21,382 nt of DNA from a virus (lineage: Duplodnaviria > Heunggongvirae > Uroviricota > Caudoviricetes), in IMG/VR virus record IMGVR_UViG_3300023697_000634; one strand, written 5' to 3'. Positions 1-4,588 of the stretch are shown here, in pieces. Under the pieces are notes generated by a model. The model was not told the origin of the DNA and did no database searches. It saw only the letters and a list, made by a program, of their open reading frames with translations. The first letter of the stretch is position 1; each line of letters begins with the position of its first letter. The translations under genes and the position numbers were made by a program.

Positions 1-46
1 CCAAGCATATTTGTGCTTGGGTAGCCGAAGTGGTAGAGGCAAAGAG
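1..46 (+). ncRNA. Circularly permuted tRNA-like module A (truncated by window start)
   Basis: CCAAGCA(1-7) pairs with TGCTTGG(14-20) across a 6-nt loop. 15-46 reads as a tRNA 5' half: GCTTGGG-TA-GCC-GAAGTGGTAGA-GGC-A-AAGAG. The matching acceptor 3' strand lies upstream rather than downstream. The T-arm would lie before the window. Confidence 0.65.
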
Positions 47-51
47 ACGGG

Positions 52-380
52 TACAGAGATCGTTTATCGTGATAGTAGTTGTATTGACCTCACAGACTTA
101 TTGTAAGGGTTTAACTTATCAGCCGGAGAGCTTATCCTTATACTAAACATATAAAGATAAACAAGATTATGCTGGTTCGAGTCCAGCCTGCGTCGCCAAA
201 GTGATACGTAGATTGCTTTGGGACGCAGTGAGCAAATGGTAAAGCTGCTTGTTAATTAATAACACAACGTTATCGTAACGGCCCTAGTGTGCAAAAGTAA
301 GTTAGGCGTGAAGGAATTCACAAGATTCGCTTATACTCAACAGCTACGTTGTATAAGCGGTTCTTCTAAAGCGATCTGTA
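52..380 (+). ncRNA. Putative large structured RNA scaffold carrying module B at its apex
   Basis: Nested long-range helices 52-65/369-380 and 110-119/297-306 enclose 160-165/248-253. Local hairpins at 132-160, 268-280, 308-321 (GGAA tetraloop) and 328-359. No credible ORF. Confidence 0.55.
160..253 (+). ncRNA. Circularly permuted tRNA-like module B (YrlA/Y-RNA-like tRNA mimic)
   Basis: The 3' half comes first: ACAAG(161-165)-ATTAT-GCTGG TTCGAGT CCAGC-CTGCGTC-G-CCA(198). The 5' half follows: GACGCAG(222-228)-TG-AGC AAATGGTAAA GCT-G-CTTGT(248-252). Acceptor (7/7 bp) and anticodon-stem (5/5 bp) strands match perfectly, only in this permuted order. Confidence 0.85.
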
Positions 381-402
381 TTAGATTTCTTCAGAAGAAT
401 TT

Positions 403-1735: not shown

Positions 1736-3169
1736 ATGTCAACATTCGCTGAAGCTGTAGTAAACCAAGAAGCCCGTACCACGAATGGTATGGTGGCACG
1801 CAAGTCCACTGCAAATGCGTGCGTCGATCTATTCTTCAAGATCGGTGCTTCACGTGGTAAGGACATCACGAAGGATTTCGTGGCCGCATACGCTGAGAAC
1901 AAAGATGTCGCGTTGCGCATCGCTCAATGGGTCCGTGACGCTCGTGGTGGCGCTGGTGAACGTGAATTGTTCCGCCAAGTTCTGAAGTATCTCGAAAAGC
2001 ACGATAAGGACGCTGCAGCAGCATTGCTGGCTAAAGTGCCTGAAATCGGTCGCTGGGATGACATCTTCGTCTTCGAAGATAAGGACTTGAAGGCCAAGGC
2101 ATTCACAATGTTGGGTGATGCACTCCGTGCAAAGAATGGTCTCGCTGCGAAGTGGACACCTCGCCAAGGTAAACTCGCTGCCGAAATTCGTACATTCTAT
2201 GGAATGTCGCCAAAGTTCTACCGTAAGTCGTTGGTTGAATTGACCAACGTCGTCGAAACACAAATGTGTGCGAAGGACTGGGATGCAATCAACTTCTCGC
2301 ACGTGCCATCCGTGGCCGCTGCTCGTTACAAGAAAGCATTCAACCGTAACACACAAGAATACGCAAAGTATGTTGCTGAATTGATGAAGGATCCAAAAGA
2401 TCGTACAGTCAAAGTCAAGATCAACGCTGGCGCAGTGTTTCCATACGATGTGTTGAAGGGCGTTATCGGTTCATACCGTAACAACTATTCCGCAGCTGAG
2501 CTCGGTGCGCTGCAAGCGCAATGGGATGCGATGGAAAACTTCATCGGTGATGCAAACGTCTTGCCATTGGTAGACGTTTCTGGTTCGATGTCCTGCCGTG
2601 CTGGTGGTTCTGCTTCGCAGAGCACCACAACGTGTATGGATGTTGCAGTGTCGCTTGGTTTGTACCTCGCTGACAAGAACAAGGGTAAGTTCAAGGACAC
2701 GTTCTTGACGTTCTCGGGTTCGCCAGAATTGCTGAACTTGAAGGGCAACATTGTTCAGAAAGTCCAACAAATGGTTTCTTCCAACTGGGGCATGAACACT
2801 AACTTGGTTGCTGCAATGGATAAGATCCTTGCTACGGCTACTAAGGGTGGCGTTCCACAAGAAGAAATGCCAGACATGCTGCTGATCTTGTCTGACATGC
2901 AATTCGACCAATGCGCTCGTTTCGACGATTCCGCAATGCAAATGATTGCACGTAAGTTTGAAGCAGCAGGATACGAACTTCCAAAGATCGTGTTCTGGAA
3001 TTTGAACTCGCACGATAACGTGCCTGTCAAGTATGACACTCGTGGTGTTGCTTTGGTATCTGGCTTCTCGCCAGCTATCATGACGGCAGTACTCGGTGGT
3101 GATGCTGACAAGTTCACACCAGAAGCAATGATGCTTAAGGCAGTGATGATCGACCGTTACGCGATCTAA
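1736..3169 (+). CDS. TROVE/Ro60-like (DUF2828-type) protein with C-terminal vWA domain
   Basis: AAGGAG RBS before ATG 1736 (477 aa). Helical N-terminus with RDARGGAGER and AAKWTPR, MIDAS motif VDVSGSM, ILSDMQFD, PKIVFWNL. Family called from recalled motifs. Confidence 0.8.
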   Translation: MSTFAEAVVNQEARTTNGMVARKSTANACVDLFFKIGASRGKDITKDFVAAYAENKDVALRIAQWVRDARGGAGERELFRQVLKYLEKHDKDAAAALLAKVPEIGRWDDIFVFEDKDLKAKAFTMLGDALRAKNGLAAKWTPRQGKLAAEIRTFYGMSPKFYRKSLVELTNVVETQMCAKDWDAINFSHVPSVAAARYKKAFNRNTQEYAKYVAELMKDPKDRTVKVKINAGAVFPYDVLKGVIGSYRNNYSAAELGALQAQWDAMENFIGDANVLPLVDVSGSMSCRAGGSASQSTTTCMDVAVSLGLYLADKNKGKFKDTFLTFSGSPELLNLKGNIVQKVQQMVSSNWGMNTNLVAAMDKILATATKGGVPQEEMPDMLLILSDMQFDQCARFDDSAMQMIARKFEAAGYELPKIVFWNLNSHDNVPVKYDTRGVALVSGFSPAIMTAVLGGDADKFTPEAMMLKAVMIDRYAI

Positions 3170-3183
3170 AATATGTAACACCC

Positions 3184-3213
3184 AGCCAAGGCCGTTTTGT
3201 GCCTTGGCTTTTT
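3184..3213 (+). terminator. Rho-independent terminator
   Basis: AGCCAAGGC/GCCTTGGCT stem followed by a T-run. Confidence 0.7.
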
Positions 3214-3227
3214 ACTAGAGGTGTACC

Positions 3228-3698
3228 ATGAAGAAATTAGACCTAGCTGAAGTGAAGAAATTCATCGAAGCGCAATCGCCATCCACAAAGATTTACATCG
3301 GCGCCGACTCAGAGCGCTTTAAAATGGAAGGCAGATGGTATGCTGATTACACACTCGCCGTCGTAATCCACATTGACGGAAACCATGGTTGCAAAATCTT
3401 CGGTGAAGTTCAACGTGAATTAGATTACGACCAAAAGAAGTCTAAGCCAGCAATGCGTTTGATGAATGAAGTCTACAAGGTTTCGGAATTGTTCCAAAAT
3501 CTTGCCGATGTGTTGGAAGATCGTTATGTTGAAGTCCATTTGGACATTAACCCTAACGAAATGTATGGCTCCTCGTGCGTCGTACAACAAGCTATCGGTT
3601 ACATCAAAGGCACGTGTAACGTAACACCGATGGTTAAGCCACGGGCGTTCGCTGCATCATATGCTGCTGACAGACTGAAAGAGGTCCTAGCGGCCTAA
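3228..3698 (+). CDS. RNase H-like protein (DUF458/YkuK type)
   Basis: GAGGT RBS. Motifs IYIGADS, VEVHLDIN and KPRAFAASYAAD carry acidic residues typical of this family. Confidence 0.8.
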   Translation: MKKLDLAEVKKFIEAQSPSTKIYIGADSERFKMEGRWYADYTLAVVIHIDGNHGCKIFGEVQRELDYDQKKSKPAMRLMNEVYKVSELFQNLADVLEDRYVEVHLDINPNEMYGSSCVVQQAIGYIKGTCNVTPMVKPRAFAASYAADRLKEVLAA

Positions 3699-3701
3699 AT
3701 C

Positions 3702-3724
3702 AAGGACCTTCGGGTCCTTTTTTT
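3702..3724 (+). terminator. Rho-independent terminator with cUUCGg loop
   Basis: AAGGACC-TTCG-GGTCCTT-TTTTT. Confidence 0.92.
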
Positions 3725-3737
3725 ATACATTCAATGG

Positions 3738-3775
3738 TTGACTTCCCCCATTGGACAGTATAAAATATATAAATA
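3738..3775 (+). promoter_or_regulatory. Tandem sigma70-type promoter and T4-type late promoter
   Basis: TTGACT(3738-3743)-N17-TAAAAT(3761-3766), and TATAAATA at 3768-3775. Confidence 0.8.
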
Positions 3776-3778
3776 CCT

Positions 3779-3877
3779 CATCTCATTCGGGATGGGAACT
3801 AGGCTGGTATCCTAGTGAATATCTACCAACTAATGCCTTCGGGGTTAGTTATTTTATCAACTCGCTTATTTAAGGAG
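3779..3877 (+). promoter_or_regulatory. ROSE-like RNA thermometer leader
   Basis: Four successive hairpins. The last is CTCGCTT-ATTT-AAGGAG, where a UCGCU strand with a bulged G pairs the Shine-Dalgarno. Confidence 0.65.
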
Positions 3878-3883
3878 AACCTT

Positions 3884-4102
3884 ATGACATTTTTCGCAGA
3901 CACAGCTATTGACGCAGTTCAAGACGCTAAGGCTACATTCGTTAAAACTTTCGTTAAAGACGAATCTGTAGCAAAACCACTCCAATCATTTGTTGAATCG
4001 CAACGTGCATTTGCCAAGCAAGTCGCTAAGACTTCTGCTGATGTGCTGACAGCTTCTTATGATGCTGCTCAGAAACTTGCATTCCCTGCCAAGACTAAGT
4101 GA
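3884..4102 (+). CDS. Small amphipathic helical protein, phasin-like
   Basis: AAGGAG RBS before ATG 3884 (72 aa), Ala/Lys/Phe-rich helical pattern. The phasin assignment is tentative. Confidence 0.7.
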   Translation: MTFFADTAIDAVQDAKATFVKTFVKDESVAKPLQSFVESQRAFAKQVAKTSADVLTASYDAAQKLAFPAKTK

Positions 4103-4114
4103 TAGGAGATCGAC

Positions 4115-4588
4115 ATGACATTGCTCACTACATTCAAGGACTTTGATAAGTTCTTCGTTGGTTTCGATGAACAGTTCAACCGCATTGCTAAAATGCATGA
4201 CGACTTGACAAAGAACATCCCTAACTACCCACCTTACAACATCAAGAAGACAGGCGACACTACGTATGTCATCGAACTCGCTGTTGCTGGTTTTGCCAAG
4301 CAAGACATCGAGATCGATCTTGAAGACAATAAGATGGTTATCAAGGGCAACGTCCAAAATGACGACAACGCCGACAGCTTCCTGTTCAAAGGAATCGCTG
4401 CTCGCAACTTCACTCGCACGTTCGCTCTGGACGATCAAGTAGAAGTTAAAAATGCCGAGATGATCAATGGTATGTTGCAAGTGTTCTTGGAACGAATCAT
4501 TCCTGAACACAAGAAGCCAAAGAAAATCGAAGTCAAGGAATCTACACGATCCAAAACTACTAAGCCTCTTCTAACAGACGAAGCTTAA
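4115..4588 (+). CDS. hsp20: Small heat shock protein Hsp20 (IbpA-like)
   Basis: NYPPYNIKK, IELAVAGF, LFKGIAARNFTRTFAL, AEMINGMLQV; AGGAG RBS. Confidence 0.97.
   Translation: MTLLTTFKDFDKFFVGFDEQFNRIAKMHDDLTKNIPNYPPYNIKKTGDTTYVIELAVAGFAKQDIEIDLEDNKMVIKGNVQNDDNADSFLFKGIAARNFTRTFALDDQVEVKNAEMINGMLQVFLERIIPEHKKPKKIEVKESTRSKTTKPLLTDEA

Follow-up and report, generated by a model that had tools for sequence, protein, structure and literature searches.

The question raised by the locus studied here is what kind of RNA is encoded at positions 160–253 of a 21,382 nt stretch of viral DNA (the window; IMG/VR virus record IMGVR_UViG_3300023697_000634, Caudoviricetes), and with which protein that RNA belongs. 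In this segment, termed head B, the 3′ half of a tRNA-like sequence precedes its 5′ half within a cluster of phage tRNA genes. A preliminary description made from the sequence alone had read it as a circularly permuted tRNA-like RNA, either a Y-RNA-like tRNA mimic or a two-piece aminoacylatable RNA. The results presented below make it probable that head B is the second head of a two-headed non-coding RNA encoded directly downstream of a gene for a DUF7873 protein, and that it acts, independently of Ro, as a tRNA mimic in a DUF7873 particle.

Head B is a permuted cloverleaf without an anticodon loop

All of the pairings on which the preliminary description was based were present in the sequence, with the spacing of a tRNA. 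ACAAG (161–165) pairs with CTTGT (248–252), with A160–T253 added, and CTGCGTC (188–194) pairs with GACGCAG (222–228). The order of the parts is anticodon-stem 3′ strand, variable loop, T arm, 7 bp acceptor with a capping hairpin, D arm and anticodon-stem 5′ strand (Table 1). As had been stated, the anticodon stem serves as both entry and exit of the chain, and the flanks (...GATAA/ACAAG and CTTGT/TAATT) yield no 7 nt loop with U33. G195 precedes CCA (196–198), which is followed by a 23 nt linker to G222, and G247 occupies tRNA position 26. CCAAAGTGAT (196–205) pairs with ATTGCTTTGG (212–221), extending the acceptor to 17 bp with G195 bulged, and the CCA is therefore not single-stranded in the primary fold. 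A 10 bp acceptor extension was also found in Ralstonia phage phiRSL1 (L099/L114) and Vibrio phage D491 (L119).

The minimum free energy (MFE) of head B was −37.4 kcal/mol (z = −4.4), and none of 200 shuffled sequences was equally stable. The nucleotides of tRNA-type tertiary contacts were all present, namely U8, A14, A15 with U48 (T170), G18G19, A21, G26 with A44, G53:C61 and T54-T55-C56-R57-A58, which is well beyond mere stem complementarity.

The expectation that standard tRNA finders would miss the element was borne out. Seven tRNAs were found in the window by ARAGORN, head B not being among them, and the Rfam tRNA model did not call it either. Once 222–252 had been joined to 161–198 through any 7 nt placeholder loop, the de-permuted sequence, a check proposed in the preliminary description, was called by ARAGORN as a canonical 76 nt tRNA, and the drawing of this form agreed on the conserved tertiary nucleotides. 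As encoded, head B is not a canonical tRNA, its halves being reversed so that there is no contiguous 5′-to-3′ cloverleaf with a 7 nt anticodon loop and U33; in none of 116 aligned homologous heads could the anticodon loop be restored by joining the ends. The two-piece transfer-messenger RNA (tmRNA) that had been named as a precedent gained no support: no tmRNA was found by ARAGORN and no match to the Rfam tmRNA model was obtained in 1–1500 at E ≤ 10.

A strict scan for permuted cloverleaves was carried out on both strands of 81 sources (766 kb). With a linker of 27–37 nt, the only matches were head B, its copy in the IMG/VR contig L001 and one match in a run of tRNAs (L050, gap 37); all remaining matches had linkers of at least 99 nt. 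L001 was also the only match of a blastn search with 140–280 against 80 Ro60-like loci and of a search of IMG/VR with the exact D-arm pattern. A looser pattern retrieved acceptor-closed modules in other phages, plus tandem-tRNA false positives such as L083. A DNA-level search of phage genomes with the window matched the tRNA genes alone and revealed no cultured phage that is closely related.

Heads follow DUF7873 genes in phages and bacteria

L001 encodes a Ro60-like protein 93 % identical to that of the window, and contains an identical head B with a further permuted module, head A, ~200 nt upstream. L125 comes from the window's own strain and has DUF7873 at 3001–3771 and head B at 4041–4134, the gene ending 111 nt before window nt 1. 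In both, the gene directly upstream of head A encodes a 256 aa DUF7873 protein (PF25283, E = 9e-70), and the gene order is DUF7873, head A, head B, tRNAs, Ro60-like gene. The window begins inside head A, whose T arm and acceptor 3′ strand fall upstream of it; complete copies are found at 3835–3927 of L125 and 2786–2902 of L001. The contigs L124–L129 (the largest 237,764 nt), which encode the DUF7873 protein of the window's strain, are identical to the window from nt 8 on, and DNA contigs of two more metagenomes cross head B unbroken (X14, 8–559; X16, 8–438). An assembly artefact in the order of the halves, which the preliminary description had named as grounds for refutation, is excluded by these concordant independent DNA assemblies (X14, X16, L001 and L125), all of which span the locus without a break.

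The DUF7873 protein was used to fetch IMG/VR loci, and a covariance model (R1) was built from head B alone. Full-length B-type matches to R1 lay 100–650 nt downstream of DUF7873 in nine distinct IMG/VR loci and five cultured phages, with scores of 30–47 bits in phiRSL1, Talia1610, D491, GodonK and IMG/VR loci. Altogether, 75 cultured phage records contain DUF7873, of which 10 loci were fetched (Ralstonia phiRSL1, Klebsiella KpLz-2_45, Rhizobium TM16 and TM39, Gordonia Fryberger and GodonK, Vibrio D491, Pseudanabaena PA-SR01, Arthrobacter Talia1610 and Rhodococcus NiceHouse). In all 10, DUF7873 was followed by 350–700 nt without credible genes, mostly within a tRNA cluster, and a broader covariance model built from 12 aligned heads (R2) identified one or two heads in every locus (44–70 bits).

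Relatives of DUF7873 are present in >521 bacterial species. Among the 80 bacterial species loci fetched, 66 contained a total of 104 R2 heads, all 104 of them on the strand of the gene and 40–500 nt past its end, and these bacterial heads follow DUF7873 outside tRNA operons. Head B is a member of this family of DUF7873-linked twin tRNA-mimic RNAs. In Vibrio phage D491 (OZ196387.1), a 31 aa ‘hypothetical protein’ coding sequence (CDS) annotated at L119 2931–3026 overlaps the head at 2951–3058 (R1 44.8 bits), and is probably a mis-annotated RNA gene.

The model of the DUF7873 protein (predicted local distance difference test, pLDDT, 91.7) consisted of long helices and two beta-hairpins. No match was obtained in a PHROG search or in a sequence search of the PDB, and the protein showed no recognisable synthetase-like or transferase domain. 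The best VIA-align match, 3kdq (Z 9.9), is a protein without assigned function and lies within the chance range for helical models, whilst a search of the AlphaFold database (AFDB) clusters returned uncharacterised relatives only. A literature search for ‘DUF7873’ found no paper.

All stems covary in homologous heads

Absence of compensatory changes in the acceptor and anticodon stems of homologous loci had been put forward as a result that would overturn the reading of 160–253 as a permuted tRNA-like RNA. Such changes were present in all stems of the homologous heads. In the 12 aligned heads the stems were 95.3 % paired, compared with 58.8 % in shuffles, both sides changed in 29 of 31 pairs, and the covariation score of 0.736 (0.178 in shuffles) was reached by none of 500 shuffles. 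The figures were similar for the 31 phage heads (93.9 % paired; covariation 0.892 vs 0.207) and the 85 bacterial heads (95.7 % paired; 0.720 vs 0.178), and slid controls gave ~0.1 in all three sets.

When the halves were de-permuted, they were closest to phage tRNA-Leu genes; the tRNA-Leu(CAA) at 2665–2741 of L060 shares the anticodon stem CTTGT and the variable loop ATTAT. In L083, the junction of two adjacent near-identical tRNA genes reads T arm, acceptor 3′ strand, ACCA, spacer, acceptor 5′ strand, D arm, and head B could therefore plausibly have been born by tandem duplication, the outer halves being lost afterwards. Judged by these resemblances, head B was most likely derived from a phage tRNA-Leu-type gene pair. 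That it is at present a decayed remnant of two tandem tRNA genes was ruled out, all stems covarying over >100 homologues.

The Ro60-like gene has candidate RNAs of its own

The open reading frame (ORF) 1736–3169, 1.5 kb downstream of head B, matched Pfam DUF2828 and DUF7788 and PHROG 850 (‘RNA-binding protein’), but not Pfam TROVE. With its AlphaFold (AF2) model (pLDDT 94.6) as query, the top 13 PDB matches of Foldseek were all Ro60/TROVE proteins, aligned over the full length with E values down to 6.7e-10 and template modelling (TM) scores of 0.47–0.65, and included the Ro60 of Thermus phage phiLo; a profile-to-PDB sequence search placed Ro60 first (E = 0.02). The HEAT-repeat ring and the von Willebrand factor A (vWA) domain with a MIDAS (metal-ion-dependent adhesion site) that characterize Ro60/TROVE proteins were both found, the MIDAS motif being DVSGSM (DxSGSM invariant). 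On its predicted fold, a Ro60-like protein is truly encoded here. The ORF is listed from TTG 1718, but ATG 1736 is its most likely start, since alignments with homologues begin at residue 7 and an AAGGAG is found upstream. Right after this gene, 3228–3698 encodes an RNase H-like protein (PF04308, DUF458 type).

A ‘handle’ frame, 5′-AG(G/A)NTNN-NNN-C(A/C)GCAA ... NNANNCT-GTT, was found 210 times on the (+) strand of the Ro60-like gene and 10 times on the other strand in the 81 sources, and its stems covary. Two handle RNAs lie directly upstream of the ORF, at 1413–1651 (AGAGTAG...CTACTCT-GTT, 239 nt, carrying GCCGAAAG at 1491–1498) and 1659–1715 (AGGTTAA...TTAACCT-GTT, 57 nt). These were the only matches in the window, and no handle frame was present around heads A and B. 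In many relatives, there are handle RNAs with an acceptor-closed tRNA-like module inside (17 examples), and these score 31–43 bits on the Rfam YrlA model, whilst short handle RNAs score 30–33 bits on Dicty_Class_I_RNA, in both cases below the gathering score.

In YrlA RNAs (RF02553), the GNCGAA(N)G motif in the terminal stem is Ro-binding (Chen et al., 2014, PMC4201824). The YrlA topology of T arm, closed acceptor and D arm was found in head B, and the Rfam YrlA model aligned end to end with 144–276, but at 12.6 bits (E = 5.7, in a 181 nt search) against a gathering score of 69, so that there was no match at the gathering threshold. No GNCGAA(N0–1)G Ro-binding stem was identified, the sole GNCGAA in 1–1187 lying at 24–29 in the D loop of head A, and there was no extended stem beyond 156–257. 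A conserved Ro60 neighbour was likewise not found: the complete phage records G001 (phiRSL1), G005 and G007 contain DUF7873 and heads but no DUF2828/DUF7788- or TROVE-type gene, and in G006 the DUF2828-type gene is 93 kb away. Conversely, DUF7873 was present in only one of 80 Ro60-like loci (L001). The neighbourhood seen here therefore looks like two RNA–protein systems sharing the tRNA cluster, not one. Judged by gene neighbourhood, DUF7873 and not the Ro60-like gene is the conserved genomic partner of head B. Of the Y-RNA-like mimic proposed in the preliminary description, the tRNA mimic with YrlA topology was retained, whereas YrlA membership and partnership with Ro60 were not.

Acceptor-closed mimics with another layout, in which an intact anticodon arm follows the T arm, acceptor and D arm, were observed at L046 4562–4683, L054 967–1088, L091 1580–1665 and L093 2762–2843, and several of their anticodon loops conform to U33/A37. 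The break point of the permutation therefore varies between lineages.

Encoded CCA and transcript ends

The sequence NCCA stands right after the 7 bp acceptor 3′ strand in 15 of the 31 phage heads and 23 of the 85 bacterial heads, compared with ~1 in 64 by chance, and the head of Vibrio phage D491 repeats the G-CCAA and the 10 bp extension of head B. In metatranscriptome run X4, a contig of 837 nt (depth 139) covers 8–198 of the window and stops at CCA198; upstream it extends for 645 nt, passing head A and entering the DUF7873 region, and head A, which has no CCA, is unbroken in it. The next contig (566 nt, depth 57; 222–600) begins exactly at G222, and 199–221 is uncovered. These ends fall on the very nucleotides of the CCA terminus and acceptor position 1. 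There was no loose end at 198 or 222 among the loose ends listed for X4, and the DNA runs X14 and X16 cross the stretch. In a second RNA run (X18), only the T arm of an unrelated phage was matched (170–187).

Bacterial RNase P recognises a 7 bp acceptor, a T arm and a 3′ RCCA. The contig ends are a hint of tRNA-type processing of head B, which would leave a two-piece body with a nick, and to this extent the two-piece RNA of the preliminary description has gained support. Its aminoacylation has not: under the canonical E. coli identity rules, G73, C3:G70 and a short variable loop are not known to fit any of the synthetases that act independently of the anticodon (Ala, Ser, Leu and His).

Proposed function and alternative explanations

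In the reading preferred here, each head is a circularly permuted tRNA body without an anticodon loop, with the chain entering and leaving through the anticodon stem and the acceptor capped by a loop. The RNA would be co-produced with the tRNA operon. Because head B keeps a 7 bp acceptor, a T arm, G1 and an encoded G73-CCA, RNase P may cut it before G222, with trimming back to CCA198, as the transcript contigs hint; the product would be a tRNA body with a nick and a CCA end, its two pieces joined by the acceptor and anticodon stems. An RNA–protein particle with DUF7873 would then present the heads as tRNA mimics and engage factors that recognise tRNAs, resembling in this the YrlA Y RNAs, but with a different partner and without dependence on Ro. 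A more specific version, in which the matured, nicked head B is used or presented at its CCA end by DUF7873, for instance as a cofactor, charged or nucleotide-modified, or as a decoy for enzymes or toxins acting on tRNA 3′ ends, is unlikely. If true, phages and at least seven bacterial phyla would contain a new and widespread ribonucleoprotein class that acts by way of a genuine tRNA-like 3′ terminus.

Several points weigh against the DUF7873 particle and the processing proposed for it. The linkage between DUF7873 and the RNA is genomic only, binding of the RNA by the protein being putative; nor did the DUF7873 model give an informative fold match, Foldseek finding nothing in the PDB at E ≤ 0.001. 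Fourteen of the 80 bacterial DUF7873 loci had no R2 match at E ≤ 1e-5. A Ro-type gene lies near the locus here and in G008 (a TROVE gene ~7 kb off), and a functional tie to Ro may exist in some lineages. The alignments scored for covariation were fitted to the structure of the model and are biased towards it; that the signal is real is nevertheless argued by the slid controls and by how many pair types occur. The hint of processing comes from contigs of one metatranscriptome, and contigs cannot prove RNA ends. The X4 contigs could also have been broken by a drop in reverse transcription or coverage at the 17 bp hairpin, and inter-tRNA spacers in the same X4 contig are unbroken.

Three other explanations were weighed. 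Head B could be a YrlA-type Y RNA bound by the Ro60-like protein 1.5 kb downstream and tethering that protein to an exonuclease for the decay of structured RNA. The Ro60 fold of ORF 1736–3169 with its DVSGSM MIDAS, the shared topology, the end-to-end alignment of the YrlA model and the TROVE gene near the DUF7873 locus of G008 are all in keeping with this, and the YrlA of Mycobacterium smegmatis, the only one with a 7 bp acceptor, undergoes RNase P cleavage and acquires CCA in vivo (PMC4201824). Such a role is nevertheless decidedly unlikely, given the score of 12.6 bits against 69, the absence of a GNCGAA flanking head B and of a long terminal stem, the candidate handle RNAs that the Ro60-like gene has for itself whilst head B has no handle, the heads that follow DUF7873 in Ro-free genomes, and the 79 of 80 Ro60-like loci without DUF7873.

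A functional split or permuted tRNA, the pieces of which, once cut by RNase P and trimmed at the 3′ end, make up a CCA-ended molecule that can be aminoacylated, would be an amino-acid carrier outside decoding, because there is no anticodon. The 7 bp acceptor, G1, encoded G73-CCA and complete set of tertiary nucleotides are what such a molecule would have, as are the family-wide enrichment of NCCA and the RNA contig ends at CCA198 and G222. No head has an anticodon loop, however, at least half of the heads lack CCA, the canonical E. coli identity rules are not matched and DUF7873 has no recognised synthetase-like or transferase domain, all of which makes this explanation very improbable. The chance that the heads are only a signal for RNA processing or stability, serving as RNase P or 3′-end punctuation between the DUF7873 mRNA and the tRNA operon and capping the mRNA 3′ end, is close to negligible. 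The element does lie between a coding gene and a run of tRNAs, and the X4 contig that ends at 198 extends upstream through head A into the DUF7873 region as such a role would have it; but bacterial heads follow DUF7873 outside tRNA operons, head A without CCA is unbroken in the RNA contig, and two heads with conserved D arms and tertiary nucleotides exceed the needs of a cleavage signal. Head B works like a YrlA-type tRNA mimic, but is neither a YrlA nor primarily a partner of Ro60.

Layout of the element and its surroundings

The coordinates of the element are given in Table 1. The part of head A inside the window consists of the acceptor-extension 3′ strand, the acceptor 5′ strand GCTTGGG (15–21), TA, the D arm GCC/GAAGTGGTAGA/GGC (24–40), A41 and AAGAG (42–46). 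Window nt 1–7 (ccaagca) match no other assembly, L125, L001 and the X4/X14 contigs reading ...atagtat at this point; they are the reverse complement of 14–20, and are therefore a fold-back artefact at the contig end, inside the head A hairpin.

Table 1. Parts of the two-headed RNA in the window
Feature	Position	Strand	Remarks
3′ part of head A (first permuted module)	8..46	+	R2 53.1 bits
Inter-head linker with ACAGACTTA motif at ~93–101	47..159	+	
Head B anticodon-stem 3′ strand (chain entry)	160..165	+	Pairs with 248–253; helix 86 % paired, 6/6 pairs covary in homologues
Head B variable loop ATTAT	166..170	+	T170 is candidate U48 of A15:U48 Levitt pair; read from sequence
Head B T arm GCTGG-TTCGAGT-CCAGC	171..187	+	Pairing 100 % across 31 phage and 85 bacterial heads
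Head B acceptor 3′ strand CTGCGTC	188..194	+	7/7 pairs covary in homologues
Discriminator G195 and encoded CCA	195..198	+	RNA contig of run X4 stops at 198
10 bp extension hairpin CCAAAGTGAT / ATTGCTTTGG, loop ACGTAG	196..221	+	Caps acceptor; 199–221 without RNA-contig cover
Head B acceptor 5′ strand GACGCAG	222..228	+	X4 RNA contig begins exactly at 222, the predicted RNase P site
U8, G9, D arm AGC/AAATGGTAAA/GCT (231–246; A14, A15, G18, G19, A21), G26	229..247	+	D stem 100 % paired, covaries
Head B anticodon-stem 5′ strand CTTGTT (chain exit)	248..253	+	Read from sequence and fold
3′ tail up to tRNA-Val; small hairpins 267–279, 308–321, 328–360, 361–397	254..402	+	Putative part of the mature RNA; crossed by transcript contig 222–600

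A nested long-range helix at ~52–380 is at most a candidate: MFE folds of 1–400 and of homologous regions differ in their long-range pairings, and the only variants seen (T85C, C283T and the differences in L001) are uninformative for this helix. AGACU(N)A-like motifs, picked out by eye, occur repeatedly next to the heads and in between them when DUF7873 RNAs from distant phages are compared (L089-type flanks, L105, L109, L118, L121 and window ~93–101). A promoter-like TTGTAA-17-TATAGT at 2736–2764 of L001 is at chance level (one found, 1.9 expected). Further downstream, 842–915 of the window is tRNA-like with a CAT anticodon loop (tctcataag), scores only 18.6 bits on the Rfam tRNA model and was missed by ARAGORN; this sequence, perhaps a tRNA-Met/Ile2 that is degenerate or unusual, has relatives in L001, L016 and L025.

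Significance and comparison with known systems

Non-coding RNAs that mimic tRNAs have precedents in YrlA with Ro60, in tmRNA and in viral tRNA-like structures. The RNA family of the element described here is a large one, linked to a different, wholly uncharacterised protein, and for the DUF7873-linked RNA neither an Rfam family nor a paper in the searchable literature was found. Its carriers include cultured phages of Ralstonia, Klebsiella, Vibrio, Rhizobium, Gordonia, Arthrobacter, Rhodococcus and Pseudanabaena and hundreds of bacterial species, and it is therefore directly testable in laboratory strains. New in this work are the separation of two systems in one locus, the family-wide enrichment of NCCA and a first hint at transcript level that a head is cut at the 5′ and 3′ ends of a tRNA. 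The DUF7873 system beside a Ro60-like/handle-RNA system in a single tRNA cluster allows both to be told apart, and cautions against assigning every permuted tRNA mimic to Ro.

With the other DUF7873 twin tRNA-mimic RNAs, the locus shares the position directly downstream of DUF7873 on the same strand, the two permuted, anticodon-less and acceptor-closed heads, and the setting in a phage tRNA cluster. Particular to it are the Ro60-like gene and handle RNAs in the cluster, the 10 bp extension containing CCA and the RNA contig ends at tRNA-type termini. The handle RNAs of DUF2828-type Ro60-like genes occupy the same tRNA cluster and in some cases include an acceptor-closed tRNA-like module, but they have a frame of their own and usually an intact anticodon-like hairpin, neither of which is present in head B.

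In the permuted tRNA genes of Cyanidioschyzon merolae and of some archaea, as in head B, the 3′ half is encoded before the 5′ half and a linker joins the two over the acceptor ends. There, the linker is removed by RNase P and 3′ processing, and an intact anticodon loop is restored through a circular intermediate by a splicing endonuclease and a ligase; head B, in contrast, contains no anticodon loop nucleotides, and its setting is bacterial or phage.

YrlA is alike in its T arm, loop-closed acceptor and D arm, in the entry of the chain at the position of the anticodon stem and in an A15:U48-type Levitt pair. The M. smegmatis member adds the 7 bp acceptor, RNase P cut and CCA, and YrlA and YrlB are encoded in tandem. 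Head B differs in its score far below the YrlA gathering threshold, in having no GNCGAA(N)G stem and in having DUF7873 as its neighbour in place of TROVE/Ro60, and the DUF7873 RNA differs in carrying two full tRNA-like heads per locus, in many of which the CCA is encoded in the genome.

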